NCBI GenBank assembly: GCA_035289485.1
Contig: DATDXA010000027.1
Span: 1-20,385, forward strand
From: an archaeon
GTDB taxonomy: Archaea; Iainarchaeota; Iainarchaeia; Iainarchaeales; Iainarchaeaceae
Length of the DNA stretch: 20,385 nt
Direction of reading: 5' to 3'
The notes under the pieces were generated by a model. It ran no database searches, was not told the DNA's origin, and saw nothing but the letters and a program-made list of their open reading frames with translations. Shown here piece after piece: positions 1 through 7,495 of the stretch. The stretch's first letter is position 1; each line of letters begins with the position of its first letter. The position numbers and the translations under genes were made by a program.

Positions 1-57
1 AATTTTTTCCTACAGCCGCGCGGCATTCGGCTTAAACCTTTCGCCCTCTTGTGAGGC

Positions 58-71
58 CAAAAGGATTTAAT
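58..71 (+). promoter_or_regulatory. Putative archaeal BRE/TATA promoter for the small ORF + homing endonuclease operon
   Basis: CAAAAGGATTTAAT: purine-rich element followed by TTTAAT, resembling AAAAGGGATTTAAAT upstream of the second PCNA gene in this window. Confidence 0.45.
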
Positions 72-90
72 GCCTCTGCCGCGCCAAAAA

Positions 91-120
91 GCCTCCGGAA
101 AAAATTCCTTTCACGGAGGT
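91..120 (+). promoter_or_regulatory. Stem-loop sequestering the Shine-Dalgarno sequence of ORF 128..277
   Basis: GCCTCCG-GAAA (91-101) pairs with TTTC-A-CGGAGGT (109-120), with one bulged A and a 7-nt loop; the 3' arm contains the SD GGAGGT. Confidence 0.5.
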
Positions 121-127
121 GGTTCGA

Positions 128-277
128 ATGGAGTTTTCAAAAGAATTTCAAATTCTTCCTCCGACATCGGAGGAAATAATCGCGGCACAAAAGTTGCTGG
201 AAACGGATTCAGAATTCCTTACAGACAGGGAACTCTGGATTTTGTCAAACTATTTTGAGGAAGGTGATTGGGAATGA
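128..277 (+). CDS. Small acidic hypothetical protein (49 aa, MEFSKEFQILPPTSEEIIAAQKLLETDSEFLTDRELWILSNYFEEGDWE), not in the ORF track
   Basis: Translated by hand. SD GGAGGTG at 115-121 precedes ATG 128; its TGA (275-277) overlaps the endonuclease ATG (274) as ATGA, suggesting translational coupling. Confidence 0.7.
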   Translation: MEFSKEFQILPPTSEEIIAAQKLLETDSEFLTDRELWILSNYFEEGDWE

Positions 278-1362
278 ACTGTATGGCTTTGCCATACTTG
301 GCACCGGCACCGAACCCTGCACCGGAATATAATCCTCTCAAAGAGGCTTCTGTTATGGTGCCTCTTATCACTGAGCAGGATATCATTAGCACATATTCTG
401 CCAAAGAACAGTTTTCTTGCAGGAAATATTCTGAGTACCAGAAACTGATTGCAGAAAATCCAAGCTTTGGTTACAAGAGGGCTGCCAAAATTCTGGGAGT
501 CAAACCCGGAAAGACCCGCTGGTGGCACACCAAGGGCGAGAAGCGGGCGGTTCCATTGCCGCTCAAGGCTGCGCAAAAACTCAAAGACGCCGGGCTTCTT
601 CCATTTTACGAAAATCACAAAGACGCCGAGATTATCTTCAATATGCTCGGTGTATTGTTTGGCGATGGCGGAGTAGATGCCCTCTACAACGGGGTTGCAT
701 TCATCTCTTCGGACAAGAACGACATTGATTTGTGGGAATCAGATTTGCGCAGGGCATTTCCTTCAGCAAATGGGAAGATTGATATTATTGAAGGCGGGGA
801 ATACGGTCACTCGTATAATATCCGGTGTTACGACCGCTCAGTTATCAGATTTTTTGCGGCGTTAGGCGCTCCGGTCGGGGACAAAGTAAGCATTGTGTAC
901 TCCTTGCCAAAATGGATTTTCAACTCTTCGGATAACTCAAGGGCGGCTTTCCTTGACGGCTATCTTGCTGCTGAAGTTTCCGTAGTGAGATGGCGAGCCG
1001 ACTCGCTTGGAAATTTCCGATTTACCGATTTTGCCGTGGGCATTTCAAAGATTGAATTCCTTGAAAATGAGCACCGAATATTTATGAAAAGCCTTGAGGC
1101 GCTTCTTAAATCTGTCGGGATTCAAACCACAGGGAACATCCACAAAAACTCCGGTGCCGGCACACACCGCAAAGACGGTGCCTTTAGCGCCTCTTATAGA
1201 ATATTCATAAGAACGACTTTTCATCGTGTGCTTTTCTTCAACGAGAAATTTCAGTTACGGTACGCGTCATGGAAAAAGAGGAAAATGGTGAAAGTAATAC
1301 AAAAGGCCGTTTACGAGAAAAACGGCCAGCAAATCCCAGAAAATTACCTGCCAGAAAGTTAA
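274..1362 (+). CDS. Free-standing LAGLIDADG homing endonuclease (intein-type, with N-terminal HTH)
   Basis: Two LAGLIDADG-like helices, MLGVLFGDGG and FLDGYLAAEV; intein-endonuclease-type segment RFFAALGAPVGDK..LPKWI; HTH-like GYKRAAKILGVKPGKTRWW. No intein splicing blocks at either end. ATG 274 is preferred over TTG 268 (GAAGGTGA SD, ATGA overlap). Confidence 0.88.
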   Translation: MNCMALPYLAPAPNPAPEYNPLKEASVMVPLITEQDIISTYSAKEQFSCRKYSEYQKLIAENPSFGYKRAAKILGVKPGKTRWWHTKGEKRAVPLPLKAAQKLKDAGLLPFYENHKDAEIIFNMLGVLFGDGGVDALYNGVAFISSDKNDIDLWESDLRRAFPSANGKIDIIEGGEYGHSYNIRCYDRSVIRFFAALGAPVGDKVSIVYSLPKWIFNSSDNSRAAFLDGYLAAEVSVVRWRADSLGNFRFTDFAVGISKIEFLENEHRIFMKSLEALLKSVGIQTTGNIHKNSGAGTHRKDGAFSASYRIFIRTTFHRVLFFNEKFQLRYASWKKRKMVKVIQKAVYEKNGQQIPENYLPES

Positions 1363-1394
1363 ACCGGGTGTGTCAAATTATACTAGGCGATTCA

Positions 1395-1763
1395 ATGGAA
1401 AAAATTGATGGGCTCGAAGAAAAAGTAATGCTATTAATTAAAGCCAGGCAGGCCGGAAAACTTTCAGATTTAAGGCAATACCACGAAGCGCTTTCGGATT
1501 TGGATAGGGAACTGCTCGAATCAATCTTCACTGAAACTTGGGTACGTGGTTCTTTCTACAAAAAGCCAATGGGCTATGCCGAGAGAATGGGCCTGATAAT
1601 TGCAAAATACCCCGATGCTTACAAGCCTTGGGACAAAAACCAGGAAGAGAAACTAATCGAACTGCACAATGGTGGGAAATCAATAAGTGAAATCGGCGAA
1701 CTAATGCTCAGGCAGAAGGGTGCCATTAGTGCGAGGCTGAAAAGGCTCGGAGTGATAAAATAA
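1395..1763 (+). CDS. Small protein with C-terminal Myb/HTH-like DNA-binding domain (122 aa)
   Basis: C-terminal AYKPWDKNQEEKLIELHNGGKSISEIGELMLRQKGAISARLKRLG fits the W-x-x-x-E-x-x-x-L...G-x-S-I-x-E-I...R-x-x-G-A-I-x-x-R-L helix-turn-helix pattern. ATG 1395 avoids the overlap with the endonuclease gene. Confidence 0.7.
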   Translation: MEKIDGLEEKVMLLIKARQAGKLSDLRQYHEALSDLDRELLESIFTETWVRGSFYKKPMGYAERMGLIIAKYPDAYKPWDKNQEEKLIELHNGGKSISEIGELMLRQKGAISARLKRLGVIK

Positions 1764-1811
1764 CAAATCGTACCACAAAGAATTATAATTCCATTAACGG
1801 AAGTATCTCTT

Positions 1812-2495
1812 ATGGCCGGATTATTTGCGCACGAGTGGATTGCAAAACTGGTTTTGGGTAAGCTTTCCAAAAGGGGCTTCATTTCTGGCTACGAAAACAT
1901 CGATGATTATTTTTTCGGGGCAATAGCTCCTGATATAAGATACATAAACAATTCAGGGCGGGACATCACGCACCGGCCTTTTGGGGAGAATTCTATTTTT
2001 GAGGCATTGAAGGTAAGTAGTTCTTCAATGCCTTTCATTGCAGGCTATGAAACGCACTTAATTGTTGACGGCACATGGGCAAATGACAACGGTGCACTTG
2101 GAAGGAGCATCTACCAAAATTATGGCGTTAACGCAAATAATCCCATCCAAAAATTTTCCCTGTATCTGGCTGTTGATGATTATTTTCAGGCGGAAGCCGA
2201 TTGGGTTTTTCCTTTCGAAAGTTCAGGCAATATCCTGCGGGCAGATGACCTGTCTATTTTATTGAAACTTGGGTTCGGGCAGAAAGATATTGCCATATTC
2301 AAGGCAGCCGCAGCGGCATATGTGCGGGCTCCCGGGATTATCAATTTCAGGCCATTTAACATTCTGCCGAATAATTTTGACGAAACACTGCTAAGAAAAA
2401 TTGCCGACCAAATTCCTGCGATGACTTCTTTTCTCAAGGAGTTCAGGGATGTTTCGGTAGAAAAGTGCGTGGAGTCCTTGGAGCGGTATTTATGA
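1812..2495 (+). CDS. Zinc-dependent phospholipase C / P1-nuclease-fold family protein
   Basis: N-terminal His (AHEWIA), FFGAIAPD, ITH and AGYETHLIVD match the metal-ligand pattern of the Zn_dep_PLPC family; no signal peptide; substrate unknown. Confidence 0.7.
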   Translation: MAGLFAHEWIAKLVLGKLSKRGFISGYENIDDYFFGAIAPDIRYINNSGRDITHRPFGENSIFEALKVSSSSMPFIAGYETHLIVDGTWANDNGALGRSIYQNYGVNANNPIQKFSLYLAVDDYFQAEADWVFPFESSGNILRADDLSILLKLGFGQKDIAIFKAAAAAYVRAPGIINFRPFNILPNNFDETLLRKIADQIPAMTSFLKEFRDVSVEKCVESLERYL

Positions 2496-2620
2496 TAACG
2501 CCCCAAAAAATATTCATGATTTTTACACTGGTGTTTCTTGCCATTATCCTAGTTTTCGCCCTGTTCAGTTACGGCAGCCTCATGCTCTATTTCTACAATT
2601 TTTTCACTGCCGTGGACTGA
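2492..2620 (+). CDS. Small membrane peptide (42 aa, MITPQKIFMIFTLVFLAIILVFALFSYGSLMLYFYNFFTAVD), not in the ORF track
   Basis: ATGA overlap with the stop of the upstream gene; long uninterrupted hydrophobic stretch; fills the gap before the lon-C promoter. Confidence 0.55.
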   Translation: MITPQKIFMIFTLVFLAIILVFALFSYGSLMLYFYNFFTAVD

Positions 2621-2640
2621 TTGGCTTAACATAATGCACC

Positions 2641-2649
2641 CTATATAAT
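2641..2649 (+). promoter_or_regulatory. TATA box for the IntC-Lon(C) gene
   Basis: CTATATAAT lies about 25-30 nt upstream of ATG 2672, the spacing expected for a leaderless archaeal transcript. Confidence 0.55.
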
Positions 2650-2671
2650 GATTTTGGAATCACTAGCTATC

Positions 2672-2794
2672 ATGGAATTCAGGGCTAAAGAGGAAAATGT
2701 CACTTCCGTGCAGAAGCGCCCGTTCAAGGGCCATGTTTACAATGTCACAACCGAGACCGGAAATCTCTTTGTTGAAGATATTCTCGTTCACAAT
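2672..2794 (+). other. C-terminal half (IntC, 41 aa) of a split intein
   Basis: Block F-like [13 protein letters not shown] and block G ILVHN followed by Ser+1 (SGGLGTPPH). In-frame stops at 2618-2620 and 2627-2629 show that no N-terminal intein part is contiguous. Confidence 0.9.
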
Positions 2795-4102
2795 TCCGGC
2801 GGCCTTGGAACCCCGCCTCATTTGCGCGTGGAGCCCGGAATGATTCACCGCGCCTCTGGCGGAGTTTTGTTCATTGATGAGATTGCAACCCTTTCCATGA
2901 AATCTCAGCAGGAGCTTCTCACTGCAATGCAGGAGAAAAAATATCCAATTACAGGCCAGAGCGAGATGAGCTCGGGCGCAATGACGCGCACCGAGCCTAT
3001 CCCGTGCGATTTTGTCCTTGTTGCCGCGGGAAATTATGAGGACCTTGAGAAGGTTCACCCGGCACTTCGCTCAAGGATTCGCGGGTACGGATATGAAGTT
3101 TACATGAACCTTGAAATGGACGATAATGAGGAGAACAGAAACAAGATTGTGCAGTTCGTTGCGCAGGAAGTCACAAACGATGGGAAGATTTCGCATTTTG
3201 CAATGGACGCCGTTGAGGAAATAATTTTCGAGGCAAGAAGGCGCGCCGGAAGAAAAAACAAGCTAACCCTTAAGCTGCGTGATCTCGGAGGCCTCGTGCG
3301 CGCGGCAGGAGACATTGCAAAAGAAAAGAACCACAAGTTCACAACGCGCCAGGACATCATAGAGGCGAGAATGAGCGCAAAAACTCTTGAGCAGCAGATG
3401 GTTGGCAAGATGATTGATGAGAAGAAGGATTACGATGTTTATTTGCGCGAGGGCTCGGCAATAGGGCGCGTAAATGGCCTTGCCGTAATGGCAGATGGCG
3501 ATGCCGGCCTTGTAATGCCAATCGAAGCCGAGATTGCGCCCGCGCAATCCGCAAGCGAAGGAAAGCTGATTGCAACAGGAAAGCTTGGGGAAATTGCAAA
3601 GGAAGCCGTGCAGAATGTTTCGGCAATAATTAAGCGCCTCTCAGGCAAGGACATTTCAAAGAGCGATCTGCACATCCAATTCCTGCAATCTTATAGCGGC
3701 GTTGAGGGGGATTCTGCTTCAGTTAGCGTTGCAACAGCGGTTGTTTCCGCGCTTGAAGGGATTCCGGTCAAGCAAAGCCTTGCAATGACCGGCTCTCTAA
3801 GTGTTCGCGGCGAAGTCATGCCGGTTGGCGGAGTGACTTCAAAAGTTTCAGCGGCAATTACTGCGGGGTTTGCAGAAGTGATAATTCCAAAGTCCAATAT
3901 GGGCGATGTTGTGCTGACCGCGGAGCAGGCAAAGAAGGTGACCCTTATCGCGGTTTCAAATCTTTCCGAAGTTTTAGAGAATGCGTTCGTGAAAGGCGAG
4001 AAAAAGGACAGGCTGCTTGCAAGCCTTAAGAAGCTGATGAAGGATGCCTCGGCGAAAGATTCGGTGAAGGGAAAGCCGGGCGCCGCAATAACTTCAATTT
4101 AA
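2672..4102 (+). CDS. lon: ATP-dependent protease LonB, C-terminal part, fused to IntC
   Basis: [20 protein letters not shown], Walker [10 protein letters not shown], sensor-1 LVAAGN, Arg finger [13 protein letters not shown], catalytic Ser GVEGDSAS and Lys GGVTSKV. Walker A and the N-terminal region are absent. Alternative start ATG 2648. Confidence 0.95.
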
Positions 4103-4113
4103 TTAGGCTATTT

Positions 4114-5349
4114 TCAATTCAGCAAAATTCTTCCTTCGCTGAAAATGAAATCCCCGTTCTTTAGTTTCTGCGTCTTGTTCGTGCTCTTGTTCTTGAACTC
4201 GACGCTCTCGCGCGAATTTATCGATTCAACAGTGCCAATCCACTTGCCGTCCCTGCTATAAACCGGCAGACCCACAAGGAGCTTTGTGATTTTCTTGCGC
4301 AAATCAAGAACCTGTGAAACCCTGTATGCCGCAAGCCCGACAATGAACATCGCAAAAGCGTTTATGCCAAACCATGTAATGTCCGCGTACGGCTTGCCAA
4401 CTATTACCTGCCTTCCTGCATCGAGTATGTACCAGAGTATGAACACAGCCGCCGCTGAGAGGAAATATTTCCTGATGTTGTATGCCCTCTTAAGCTGCAG
4501 CGCATCCACGCTCTTTCCTATGACAAATGAAATCGATGAGAGTGCCAAAAAAAGAAGCATCTGCCCGATCGCTTCGGAGACCCTCACAAGGATTGTTCTT
4601 CCAAGCAGGCTGAATTCAATTACCGAGGCGTATACCCCGAACACGAAAAGCAATATTGTCATGAGGTAGAAGGGAAAGCTCACGCGCTGCAGCGAGAGGC
4701 TGCCAATAACCGTTTTCACGGCGCCGGCAATCCTGTATTCAAGCCCTGTTCCCTTTAGTATCAAATATGTTCCCACTACAAGCAGCATGCTCCGGAAGAA
4801 GAGCTCTTCAGAGTTCATGAATGCGAGTATTCCCCAGAGCAAAACAACCGTTCCGGGAACGAGTATGAATGTGCGCGTGAAATCGGGGTCCTGCAGCGCC
4901 CTTTTTATTGTAAAATAAGTGCTCTCAACTTCGGATGCCTGTGAAACTATTATTGTCTCTTTTGAAACTATCGGCGCCCTGCTCTGCAGAATCGGTATTA
5001 CTTGGTCATCCTCAGCGCCGTCCGTTACAAGCACAAAGCCTGTAGCCGGGAATTTGTCAAGCACCATTTCAAGCTGTTGGGAAATTTTCCTATCGGACTC
5101 ATACCCTGTTTTTCCATGGCCTGTGAGCACCGCAACTTGCGCATTGGATGTTGCCTTTACTTCCTCGTATTTTTTCACGGCGCCAAAGATGCTGTTTGAA
5201 TCTGAATCTGTCGGGTCTGCAAGCGCGAGTTTTGCCGCGGCCTTGATGCATTCATCCTTGCCTATAATGGGCCCCTGCACCCCCGCCTTTCTTCCAAGGT
5301 CGTTGTCGCGGTCAACGCACAAAACCAGTATATTTTCGTTCTTATCCAT
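4114..5349 (-). CDS. DUF373 family membrane protein with a C-terminal PRC-barrel-like domain
   Basis: LVLCVDRDNDLGRKAGV..GP, LADPTDSDSN and VTDGAEDD motifs, several transmembrane helices, C-terminal LVGLPVYSRDGKWIGTVESI. Confidence 0.85.
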   Translation of the reverse strand: MDKNENILVLCVDRDNDLGRKAGVQGPIIGKDECIKAAAKLALADPTDSDSNSIFGAVKKYEEVKATSNAQVAVLTGHGKTGYESDRKISQQLEMVLDKFPATGFVLVTDGAEDDQVIPILQSRAPIVSKETIIVSQASEVESTYFTIKRALQDPDFTRTFILVPGTVVLLWGILAFMNSEELFFRSMLLVVGTYLILKGTGLEYRIAGAVKTVIGSLSLQRVSFPFYLMTILLFVFGVYASVIEFSLLGRTILVRVSEAIGQMLLFLALSSISFVIGKSVDALQLKRAYNIRKYFLSAAAVFILWYILDAGRQVIVGKPYADITWFGINAFAMFIVGLAAYRVSQVLDLRKKITKLLVGLPVYSRDGKWIGTVESINSRESVEFKNKSTNKTQKLKNGDFIFSEGRILLN

Positions 5350-5376
5350 TAGCAAGCACTAACCCAAAGCCAGATA

Positions 5377-5388
5377 CCTATATATAGG
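5377..5388. promoter_or_regulatory. Palindromic TATA box in the divergent DUF373/SPFH intergenic region
   Basis: CCTATATATAGG, a perfect palindrome about 30 nt upstream of the DUF373 ATG on the minus strand. Confidence 0.5.
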
Positions 5389-5438
5389 ATTCCAGCATTT
5401 AATAATTTATTATCAAGGTTTAATTAAGGTTTTCTGAA

Positions 5439-6485
5439 ATGGTGTCTTTGAAGGACCAGGGGCATTCTGCCGCAGACCACGAGTTTGAGGAGCATCCTCA
5501 CGGTGAAACCCGCGGCCATCCGTCACATGACGAAAAGGAGAAGAATTTCAAGCAGGGCATTTTCATTGCGCTGCTCGCTGTTTTTGCGCTCATTCTTTTT
5601 TTCGTGCTCAAAACCTTTTCCGCGCTTTTGCCAAATCTTTGGTGGATTGTAATCGTTGTGCTGATACTCTATTTCATTTCAAGCTATGGCTACCTTCTCC
5701 AGCTCGCAGATTATGAAAGGGCTGTCATTTTCCGCCTTGGAAAAGTAAATCGTGTGGGTGGCCCTGGCTGGGCGCTTGCGTTCCCGCCGATTGAGGCTTA
5801 TAATGTCGTTGATTTGCGCACAAAAACTTTGGATATTCCAAAGCAGGAAGTCGTAACAAAGGACAATATTGAGGTCACTGTTGATGCAGTCATTTATCTC
5901 AAAATAGACAAGGACAACCAGTCCGTGATAAACAGCATCATTGAAGTTGATGATTACCTAAAGGCATCAGAGCTTTTTGTTTCAGGCCTAATCAGGGACA
6001 AGGCCGGCTCAATGGATTTAAGCGAACTCATTTCCAATGTAGAGGAACTAAATGTCGTGCTCAAAAAAGAGCTTGAGAGGCTTGCAAAGAAATGGGGCGT
6101 TGTAGTTGAGGAAGCGGTGATACAGGACATACAAATCCCAAAGGATGTTCTTGACTCGATGCATGCGCAAAAAATTGCGGTGCAAAATAAGCTCGCGCGC
6201 CTTGAGAGGGCCGAAGGGCACAGGGCGGAAATTGAGGCCGTGATGTCTGCTGCCGAGAAGCTAAATGACCGCGCGCTTGCTTACTACTACATCAAGGCAC
6301 TTGGAAAGCTCGGCGAGAGCAAGAGCACGAAAGTGATTTTCCCAATGGAACTTACAAACCTTGCAAAATCCCTTTCAGGCGATAAGGGGCTTTCTTCGGA
6401 CGCTCTCGAAGGGCTTTTTCGAAAGTACGCGCCGCTTGTAAAATCGCTTGCGCAAAAAGAAAAGAAAAAAGGGAAGAAGAAATAA
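5439..6485 (+). CDS. SPFH/band 7 (stomatin-like) membrane protein
   Basis: YERAVIFRLGK, GPG, VDLRTKTLDIPKQEVVTKDNIEVTVDAVIY, KWGVVVE..IQDI, KVIFPMEL; two N-terminal transmembrane helices. Confidence 0.92.
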   Translation: MVSLKDQGHSAADHEFEEHPHGETRGHPSHDEKEKNFKQGIFIALLAVFALILFFVLKTFSALLPNLWWIVIVVLILYFISSYGYLLQLADYERAVIFRLGKVNRVGGPGWALAFPPIEAYNVVDLRTKTLDIPKQEVVTKDNIEVTVDAVIYLKIDKDNQSVINSIIEVDDYLKASELFVSGLIRDKAGSMDLSELISNVEELNVVLKKELERLAKKWGVVVEEAVIQDIQIPKDVLDSMHAQKIAVQNKLARLERAEGHRAEIEAVMSAAEKLNDRALAYYYIKALGKLGESKSTKVIFPMELTNLAKSLSGDKGLSSDALEGLFRKYAPLVKSLAQKEKKKGKKK

Positions 6486-6514
6486 GTTCGCAAAAAAAAT
6501 TCCAAGCAGGCTTC

Positions 6515-7495
6515 TCATTTCCCAGATTCCCTAATCCTATTGAGCCTGTATCTCACCGAAGGAATATAGAGAACCATGTAGAGAGCAACGAATGCAACCA
6601 CTCCGCCAACCGCGGCTTCCCAGTAATTGAATATTTCCGCGGTTTCGATAAATGCGCCAATGAGAAGCGTTACAAGCGCGAGCATTAGCAGAAGCACCGT
6701 ATCAATGAACACTATGCGAATCTCGTGCTTTTTGAATGTTTTTTTCGATATTGCAGAGGATATTATTCCGCCGGCAATCGCGGCTATGAAGTATGCCATG
6801 ATTTCAGGGATCCCGTGCGGCAGATAGCTAATCGCGCGCACGATTCCCGCATCAAGGCTTTTTGAAGTTATCTCAAGGCCCACAAAAAGCCCGATTACCG
6901 ATGCGTTCCATCCCAAAAGGAAAAGGGCCCCCGCGCCCCATATTAAAGAAAATATTATCGCAAGCACCATCACCCAGTTGTTGTTGTTAAATATCAGCCG
7001 GAAACAGGCCTCAAAGCTTTTTGTTTGCGAGTTAAAGCACTCCTCCGCCCCCACGACTTTTCCGGTTATGCCGCTGTAAACATTTTGCTGCTCTGAAAAT
7101 ACCTTGTCCTTTTCAGGGAGCATGCACGAGAGGCCAAAAGGCGATGATTTGCAGTCCGCATTGCTCTCAGGCAGGGCAACTGCCCAGAAGCTGTATGTGA
7201 TTATCATCCCGACAAAAATCCAGCCGTATATGTGCAGGACATCAAAGTGCGTTCCAATGAATGAAAATGGCATGTCCTCTTCTGAAACCTCCTTCTCCTC
7301 GCTTCTTGCAAGGAGCTCATTGATTATTGGCATAAATGCAAGGGAAACGAAGGCAATCGCAAGCACCGAGCTGCTTTCGGGGAATGTGTGGTATGCGATA
7401 AAGAGTGAAATTGTGGTGATGGCAAAAGCGATGAAAAAGAGGGTTATAGGGTGCCTTTCTGCGCCTTCTGTCGTAATAAGCGATTCGAGCACCAT
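6515..7495 (-). CDS. Stage II sporulation protein M (SpoIIM)-family integral membrane protein
   Basis: Multi-pass hydrophobic protein with IFNNN, WNASVIG, LPHGIPEIMAYFIAAIAG and GAFIE motifs. Confidence 0.8.
   Translation of the reverse strand: MVLESLITTEGAERHPITLFFIAFAITTISLFIAYHTFPESSSVLAIAFVSLAFMPIINELLARSEEKEVSEEDMPFSFIGTHFDVLHIYGWIFVGMIITYSFWAVALPESNADCKSSPFGLSCMLPEKDKVFSEQQNVYSGITGKVVGAEECFNSQTKSFEACFRLIFNNNNWVMVLAIIFSLIWGAGALFLLGWNASVIGLFVGLEITSKSLDAGIVRAISYLPHGIPEIMAYFIAAIAGGIISSAISKKTFKKHEIRIVFIDTVLLLMLALVTLLIGAFIETAEIFNYWEAAVGGVVAFVALYMVLYIPSVRYRLNRIRESGK

Follow-up and report, generated by a model that had tools for sequence, protein, structure and literature searches.

Fractured genes, described mainly from phage and marine metagenomes (Dassa, London, Stoddard, Schueler-Furman and Pietrokovski, 2009; PMC2677866), are loci of three coding regions with spacers of 27–51 nt, in which the gene for a conserved enzyme is split at an intein into two genes of the same orientation, the intein halves are in frame with both parts, and a free-standing endonuclease gene lies between them. 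A Vsr-like endonuclease family fills half of these loci, and the term LAGLIDADG occurs nowhere in the main text. Here we describe a locus of related design in the archaeal order Iainarchaeales (DPANN): the first 2794 nt of the window, which is the whole analyzed stretch of 20,385 nt (contig DATDXA010000027.1 of assembly GCA_035289485.1; hereafter C27), probably form the interior of a fractured gene for the protease LonB. The locus shares with the described fractured genes the broken enzyme gene, the two co-oriented parts at one locus, the in-frame intein halves and the free-standing endonuclease gene. It differs from them, as described in that source, in its host, a chromosomal archaeal lonB, in its endonuclease, which is of the LAGLIDADG type, and in spacers of 0.9–4.4 kb that hold up to several unrelated genes differing between species.

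Three other kinds of element invite comparison. Ten LonB inteins were reported by Novikova et al. (2016; PMC4760082), all of them from Euryarchaeota; like the intein described here they lie in the AAA+ part of archaeal LonB, but they belong to single polypeptides and splice in cis. In phage homing endonuclease gene (HEG) islands, endonuclease genes and neighboring "cargo genes" are mobilized together; at least two endonuclease genes flank an essential phage cargo without fixed boundaries (PMC10448857), whereas in the lonB locus a single endonuclease gene accompanies accessory cargo, and the intein halves, within a cellular gene, mark the locus off sharply. The lonB locus further resembles natural split genes, such as those of DnaE and PolB, in that an essential protein would be made from two genes by trans-splicing, and differs from them in that its halves stay together. 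The PolB intein of Nanoarchaeum is naturally split, and the halves of DnaE and of PolB lie far apart with no endonuclease. Cyanobacterial DnaE likewise carries a natural split intein (Novikova et al., 2016; PMC4760082). The first-pass annotation of the window, made from its letters alone, knew of no description of such a cassette, and our own literature search, of limited reach and directed at split inteins, archaea/DPANN and homing cargo, agreed with it in finding no publication on a cargo-bearing split-intein lonB. New here are the systematic survey of the cargo, the putative promoter of the downstream gene and the two-gene module that forms part of the cargo.

The source bin comprises 1.16 Mb in 64 contigs, is 90% complete and is designated G000 in comparisons with a set of 196 genomes of the same order. 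Base 1 of the window is base 1 of contig C27, and the N-terminal part of LonB (LonN) with the N-terminal intein half (IntN) therefore lies outside it. A profile search for LonB located the sole LonB N-terminus of the genome on contig C35, where the open reading frame (ORF) at 1132–2151 encodes LonB up to ...GDVRHDPLQ (205 aa) and then, before its stop codon, an intein part of 134 residues (CHYGFNE..., with a TPEH block). C35 is 2243 nt long, which leaves 92 nt between the end of LonN-IntN and the contig end, and its last 12 letters are the first 12 of the window. The end of C35 and the start of the window tile a single intergenic region of the relative G005 (its letters 1–121 and 113–260), and the same head-to-tail tiling is seen on the intergenic region of G001, G003 and G004; the upstream lon-N and IntN that the first-pass annotation had predicted are thus present, in a position colinear with four relatives. 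Contigs from two public runs extend beyond window base 1 (records 1 and 16). By the coordinates of C35 and the window, a spacer of about 2.75 kb separates the IntN stop from the start of the C-terminal intein half (IntC).

Five co-oriented genes sit in this spacer, all on the plus strand, at 119/125–277, 268/355–1362, 1269/1398–1763, 1812–2495 and 2465/2492–2620 (the second coordinate of each pair of starts is preferred from comparison with relatives), as had been read from the window alone: a small ORF, a LAGLIDADG endonuclease gene, a helix-turn-helix (HTH) gene, a gene for a protein like phospholipase C (PLC) and a gene for a membrane peptide. They are followed by IntC and the C-terminal part of LonB (LonC). 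The stretch from the PLC-like gene through the peptide gene and IntC to LonC is bridged with zero differences by contigs from three other studies (X2 record 12, 1898–2935; X3 record 20, 2170–2935; X4 record 26, 2486–2827). The host gene is broken into two co-oriented genes, N part first, and the same order is found on single contigs in 28 relatives.

That this layout is an assembly artefact, or that lonB is a pseudogene in decay into which DNA has been inserted, has hardly any probability left and is largely refuted. Such a reading could draw on the position of the window at a contig end, on the short length of C35 with its transposase-like fragment, and on repeats near window positions 27–76 and 290–318 that break Logan contigs. 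The recurrence of the layout on single contigs in 28 other genomes and the run contigs of three other studies contradict an artefact, and strong purifying selection on lon and on the intein halves, in the only LonB of a 90%-complete genome, contradicts a dead gene. The fragment on C35 is the end of an integrase/transposase-like frame at 1–138 (locus L010) and is followed by a 295-aa ORF at 220–1107, both upstream of lonN; it may be the reason why this contig is so short.

The lon ORF listed at 2648–4102 matches the LonB model TIGR00764 with 663.9 bits and Lon_C at 7.3e-32; comparison with relatives moves its start to the ATG at 2672 (MEFRAKEE... here, MDFKAKEE... there), so that IntC (41 aa, MEFRAKEE...ILVHN) occupies 2672..2794 and the C-terminal extein, with the remainder of the AAA+ domain, the LID and the S16 protease domain (Pfam Lon_C, LonB_AAA-LID and AAA_32), occupies 2795..4102. 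Among 25 split-locus sequences, 13 begin the intein with Cys and 12 with Ser, and neither the TPEH block nor the terminal Asn nor the +1 Ser varies. The LonN and LonC exteins abut exactly in the intein-less allele of G006, a member of the same genus. Against five genus mates, ratios of nonsynonymous to synonymous divergence (dN/dS), which are rough because dS is near saturation, are 0.04–0.07 for the Lon halves (LonC 0.04–0.06), 0.04–0.16 for IntN and 0.02–0.10 for IntC, so both lon halves and both intein halves are under strong purifying selection. Complex prediction with IntN and IntC gave a score of 0.85, the best of three controls reaching 0.00, with at least 87% contact agreement between runs and partner pLDDT (predicted local distance difference test) of at least 77; 116 of 157 solved complexes and 2 of 215 mismatched pairs attain this mark, counts that are only rough because we supplied our own alignments. 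This predicted pairing may reflect likeness to solved split inteins. We infer that a naturally split class-1 intein rejoins LonN and LonC by protein trans-splicing. In three relatives a second intein lies about 70 residues further into LonB, with the frames separate (L034 in G005, L035 in G023, L036 in G031), and its endonuclease domain is 26–30% identical to the free-standing endonuclease; LonB of these genomes seems to be made from three pieces.

The free-standing gene at 355..1362 encodes 335 aa from an ATG conserved in relatives, and its product consists of an N-terminal helical DNA-binding part and a LAGLIDADG part. Neither Pfam, including its LAGLIDADG models, nor PDB sequence searches returned anything meaningful (zero matches in Pfam), and residues 103–341 match the intein part of NF038162, a model of intein-containing RtcB, at 9.7e-17. 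The AlphaFold model, built from 24 sequences, has a pLDDT of 92.7, and Foldseek matched it to I-Tsp061I (3.3e-8), followed by E-DreI, I-DmoI, PI-SceI and PI-PfuI, with 89 matches at E<=0.001. The motifs LGVLFGDGG and LDGYLAAE are present, and G103-D104-G105, in the first LAGLIDADG motif, and E207, in the second, are invariant in the 24 sequences; dN/dS is 0.05–0.10. By fold and motifs the protein is a LAGLIDADG homing endonuclease, one that would be expected to cleave the intein-less lonB target.

Directly 5' of the endonuclease gene lies the small ORF orf52 (50 aa, 125..277), which begins at an ATG behind the ribosome-binding site GGAGGTG and travels with the endonuclease gene: it occupies the same place in G001, G003, G004, G005, G129 and G128, with a remnant in G162. 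It has no family match in Pfam and other profile libraries, PADLOC or PHROGs, and its dN/dS is 0.19–0.39, which is also the range spanned by the two small ORFs of the spacer together. The DNA at 1..124 continues the spacer from the IntN stop on C35, as judged from the overlap, the colinearity and the run contigs, and is a conserved block with the TATA-like GGATTTAAT and the GGAGGTG site. Between orf52 and the endonuclease gene, 283..354 is a putative promoter of the latter; it carries the motif GCACCGGCACCGAACCC (301–317) followed by the TATA-like GGAATATAATCC. The combination of this motif with a TATA-like box occurs at nine places in the genome, of which the endonuclease promoter region is one. 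In the form GCACCGGCACC[GT]AACCC, 6–12 nt before the box, the motif is found at window 301–317 and on C3, C4, C5 (twice), C14, C38, C43 and C47, and it is possibly the site of a shared regulator. Both promoter-like blocks recur on C21 of the same genome (about 28384–29830) with a small orf52-like gene (...LTDRELWILS...), followed by a gene for a 365-aa HTH and LAGLIDADG_3 protein (1.1e-6; L005:366–1463, minus strand) that lies just 5' of a methionyl-tRNA synthetase gene with a seemingly disrupted frame at its start. Kinship of this C21 gene with the lon endonuclease family was considered and dropped, the profile comparison giving a probability of 9.8% and showing no relation.

Across the order, LonB was matched in 186 of the 196 genomes, and the loci of 43 relatives were mapped: one is intein-less, eight carry a one-piece intein at this site and 34 are split, which with the window makes 35 split loci. 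Three of the eight one-piece inteins have an in-frame endonuclease domain, 31–33% identical to the free-standing one. The halves are linked in 29 of the 35 split loci (28 relatives on single contigs and the window); six (G039, G098, G115, G121, G128, G173) are given no linkage verdict because of contig ends. Two of these, G128 and G039, have their halves on different contigs and would be at least 5.7 and at least 5.9 kb apart if the contigs adjoin, an adjacency that is assumed. Among the linked loci the endonuclease gene is intact in 20, broken or a remnant in three (G101, G031, G132) and absent in six (G002, G017, G023, G034, G104, G188).

In the fractured genes of Dassa et al. the endonuclease stands alone between the halves; here it is the only sizeable gene in 9 of the 29 linked loci, and 20 hold other genes, five genes in all lying in the window. 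These genes differ from species to species at the same lon site, which bears out the variable cargo that the first-pass annotation expected relatives to show. The PLC-like gene occurs in the gap of eight linked loci (G000, G001, G002 twice, G005, G023, G033, G107 and G154) and the HTH gene in G000 and G004. Elsewhere the gap holds AAA_14/DUF4143 ATPases (G017, G101, G188), an aspartate decarboxylase (PanD) with a WYL protein (G101), a Bro-N protein (G188), a TPR protein (G129), an MNT-type nucleotidyltransferase (G002) and a 522-aa protein (G034). In G104 a gene of the malate/L-lactate dehydrogenase family 2 (Ldh_2, 8e-121; L080, oriented 786–1886) is the only gene in the spacer. In G132 the gap holds a complete diversity-generating retroelement with an Lcl_C target, bAvd and a reverse transcriptase (L085, oriented 3954–6872), whose 84-nt repeat pair has 15 mismatches, 14 of them at adenines of the copy beside the reverse transcriptase; the coordinates entered for the retroelement also include L088 (G128) 40–2650. 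Gap ORFs in several loci have no family match.

The tolerance of the spacer for such different genes would be explained if IntC-LonC had a promoter of its own, as appears to be the case from the DNA upstream of it. A TATA-like box (e.g., CCTATTTAATAATTTT) lies about 25–40 nt 5' of the IntC start in nearly every locus, whatever the cargo; in the window it is CCTATATAA at 2640..2648, about 25 nt from IntC. A TATA pattern, AT-rich and written after the sequences had been viewed, lies 90–118 nt before the codons for YNVTTE in 31 of the 35 split loci, against 4.2% of 7000 random 60-nt windows from the same loci, and two of the four misses (G187, G188) have TATTTAA without the T run. LonB would then be made as two polypeptides, LonN-IntN and IntC-LonC, that trans-splicing rejoins, and, given the IntN stop codon and the apparent TATA promoter of IntC-LonC, insertions between the halves would cost Lon nothing. 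The spacer of about 2.75 kb thus probably acts as a permissive site that gathers accessory genes, here the HTH gene and the module of the PLC-like and peptide genes. The neutral landing site proposed in the first-pass annotation is well supported and has gained, in the conserved box directly 5' of IntC, a mechanism.

The cassette may be moved by its own free-standing LAGLIDADG endonuclease, together with the small upstream gene. Split and intein-less alleles coexist in at least ten genera, as in G006 compared with G000–G005. In the tree tests, f labels denote families and g labels genera. The tree of the Lon exteins has 16 label changes, where the minimum is 15, and none of 200 shuffles was as low; the sole offender is a lonB copy on contig C43 of G012. 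That bin holds two lonB loci, a split one on C43 (L095) and one with a one-piece intein on C44 (L032), and the exteins of the C43 copy group with G054 of family f2 (support 100). The tree of 21 free-standing endonuclease genes has 13 label changes (minimum 10), and 25 of 200 shuffles were as low. Approximately unbiased (AU) tests, made on groups that are taxonomic but were chosen for testing after a first tree had been seen, rejected a single clade for f25 (p-AU 3e-65), f11 (0.0048) and f1 (0.027), and did not reject one for f30 (0.054). The 20 label changes of that first endonuclease tree were set aside, because paralogues with in-frame domains, a contig that is likely foreign and one very long branch had entered into it; eight rows were dropped for the redo (six in-frame, G012b and G033 C14). 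Since the endonuclease tree conflicts with the taxonomy and the Lon exteins follow it, the cassette is mobile: the endonuclease gene has moved between Iainarchaeales families, and the inheritance of lon itself was vertical. In the intein tree all split inteins form one group apart from two one-piece groups (100/100 and 94/100), and a single origin of the split form may be compatible with it.

Whether the cargo moves with the cassette is a separate matter. Homing from a cargo-bearing donor would be expected to copy everything between the extein homology arms, because of how double-strand-break repair works, and it is conceivable that homing regularly brings the cassette into empty lonB alleles, spreading its passengers from lineage to lineage, and that the cargo pattern arose mainly by such co-conversion, a payload-carrying gene drive; we regard this as rather unlikely. 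The endonuclease that it would require is intact, under purifying selection and phylogenetically mobile; orf52 is shared by genus g1 and by G129/G128 of family f11, near neighbors on the endonuclease tree; and the two PLC-like copies of G002 have their sister copies in two different genomes, G000 (99/96) and G005 (97/94), which suggests exchange between cassettes. A PLC-like module also lies beside another free-standing LAGLIDADG gene outside lon (G033 C14), and the phage HEG-islands show that homing genes can mobilize their neighbors (PMC10448857). Yet neighbors on the endonuclease tree that belong to different families share no cargo: G187 has the endonuclease only, and its sister g1 clade the PLC-like gene; G004 has the HTH gene and G154 the PLC-like gene; G056 has the endonuclease only, G098 the PLC-like gene, and G116/G117 another ORF. 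Within genus g1 the PLC-like genes of the gap group in a single clade, which fits vertical descent, cargo occurs without an intact endonuclease in 9 of the 29 linked loci, and no cassette-specific reduction of dS relative to the exteins is seen between G000 and G002. Together these trees and gene contents suggest that the cargo was mostly gained and lost locally. Of the claim that homing into intact lon alleles co-converts the passengers, the mobility of the cassette is borne out and the co-conversion of the passengers stays conjectural, the cargo being unshared across families and lacking an intact endonuclease in the loci just counted; that passengers ride along by homing is nonetheless plausible.

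A contig of the groundwater run X4 joins ...GDVRHDPLQ directly to S-GGLG and represents an intein-less lonB. It was considered as a polymorphism of the same strain at window position 2798 and rejected; it differs from C35 at many synonymous sites and therefore comes from another, related organism. Potential homing targets and cassette carriers therefore coexist in one sample.

The passenger genes differ in how much can be said of them. The HTH gene (1398..1763, 121 aa; 1398 is probably its start) has its C-terminal helix-turn-helix recognized through phrog_323 "transcriptional regulator" (3.3e-7, residues 72–119), has zero matches in Pfam and has a homologue with 31% identity at the same place in G004. 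The PLC-like gene (1812..2495, 227 aa) encodes a zinc-hydrolase-like protein that matches the Pfam family Zn_dep_PLPC (PF00882) at 4.6e-5 and 23.9 bits, below the cut-off of 26.8, its orthologues scoring 29–36.3 bits. Its model (pLDDT 84.6) was aligned by VIA-align to the PLC of B. cereus with Z 8.8, to two more PLCs with Z 8.5 and to three S1/P1-type nucleases with Z 7.3–7.4; these top six of 48,161 chains all belong to one superfamily (root-mean-square deviation 4.0–5.3 over 148–162 aligned residues), and the next match has Z 3.5. The protein is thus predicted to have the all-helical fold of the superfamily of Zn-dependent phospholipases C and S1-P1 nucleases. Against the PDB, neither Foldseek (at E<=0.001) nor a profile search found a match, and PADLOC and PHROGs likewise had none. 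H7, H54, H82, D86, D122 and D123 are among the invariant residues. The zinc ligands of the superfamily include a free N-terminal Trp left by removal of the signal peptide; the PLC-like protein begins MAGLF..., and no signal peptide was seen by eye. The enzyme may act on lipid or on nucleic acid.

The PLC-like gene has dN/dS of 0.04–0.06 and is found in 25 of the 196 genomes, some with several copies, and its family is very small, with 135 members among 1.84 billion representatives at E<=0.001 and 11 at 1e-30. A gene for a membrane peptide of 37–43 aa overlaps its stop in 24 of 27 copies in relatives, inside and outside lon, and the two genes form a module; the peptides end in ...YNFLTAVD or ...NLVIAE, and in the window the peptide has 42 aa (2492..2620) and dN/dS of 0.26–0.32. 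The module also occurs among toxin-antitoxin-like genes elsewhere in these genomes: 18 of the 28 PLC-like copies placed in a tree lie outside lon, with Fic/DOC, phospholipase D (PLD)-like, HEPN/nucleotidyltransferase, PIN and ParE genes as neighbors, and one (G033 C14) adjoins another free-standing HTH-LAGLIDADG gene. The tree implies that the PLC-like gene moved into or out of the lon gap at least three times. Outside lon the module is repeatedly found beside Fic/DOC and small PLD-like nuclease genes (L041, L043, L044, L048 and others), a neighborhood that may be a larger accessory island. The peptide gene stands alone 5' of the IntC promoter in G031, G162, G164 and G121, which may be a trace of lost modules.

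The kinship with nucleases raises the thought that the PLC-like protein itself mobilizes the cassette, as a new kind of homing nuclease, an explanation to which we give very little credence. It would account for gaps with a single gene, since the PLC-like gene and its peptide are the sole protein-coding occupants of the gap in G023 and occur twice without a LAGLIDADG gene in G002, and it accords with the S1/P1 nucleases of the fold family and with the patchy distribution of a small, sometimes multicopy gene. However, the three best structural matches are phospholipases C, most copies lie outside lon beside Fic, PLD-like, HEPN/nucleotidyltransferase and PIN genes, the nearly constant membrane peptide points to the membrane, and no DNA-binding domain was found in the protein with Pfam and other profile libraries, PADLOC or PHROGs.

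The base composition of the passengers does not bear on their origin. Spot counts in the first-pass annotation had suggested a lower GC (guanine plus cytosine) content in the PLC-like gene than in lon, and the contrast itself is real (PLC-like gene 43.9%, LonC 51.0%, LonN 51.9%), but it fails as an argument for foreign DNA: the genome mean is 46.4%, and among 700-nt windows of the genome the PLC-like gene lies at the 20th percentile (the cargo at the 17th–20th) and LonC at the 93rd. The cargo is within the normal range and lon is the GC-rich outlier, so composition is silent on foreign origin, and GC was discarded as a sign of it. Searches with Rfam of window positions 1–3000 gave 0 matches, no tRNAs were found in the window, and among the listed runs that contain the stretch none is of RNA.

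Several points tell against a fractured lonB with a variable, mobile cassette, beyond the after-the-fact TATA pattern, the choice of groups for the AU tests and the rough dN/dS values given above. The join of C35 to C27 is deduced from a 12-nt overlap and from colinearity with relatives; all the genomes are metagenome bins, and one contig (G012 C43) is probably foreign to its bin, as its exteins group with f2. Some of the cargo ORFs without a family match, in G003, G116 and G117, are perhaps no genes at all. The layout of the locus, its conservation, the selection on it, the varying cargo and the disagreement of the endonuclease tree with the taxonomy are observed; that the intein splices, the endonuclease cuts, the promoter is used and passengers are co-converted is inferred.

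Here a protease gene of the chromosome shows the fractured-gene design across an archaeal order, with the spacer turned into a variable region. If separate expression of the two halves does make the spacer neutral, the locus shows how a selfish element can set up a sheltered place for insertions within an indispensable gene, and how split genes may drift apart; by analogy with DnaE and PolB, a growing lonB spacer may be an intermediate on the road to unlinked split genes. It would also provide a natural split-intein family with Cys1 and Ser1 forms and many variants for protein engineering, and the lonB cassette is a testable natural case of homing with a payload. More doubtful is the wider proposal that the spacer is a natural "safe harbour" in an essential gene and that homing by a live endonuclease carries payloads between DPANN lineages. 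Were it true, cellular chromosomes would harbour a natural, cargo-bearing gene drive, in which the spacer grows by capturing defence-like modules, ATPases and even a diversity-generating retroelement, and which would make visible how linked fractured genes can turn into unlinked split genes.

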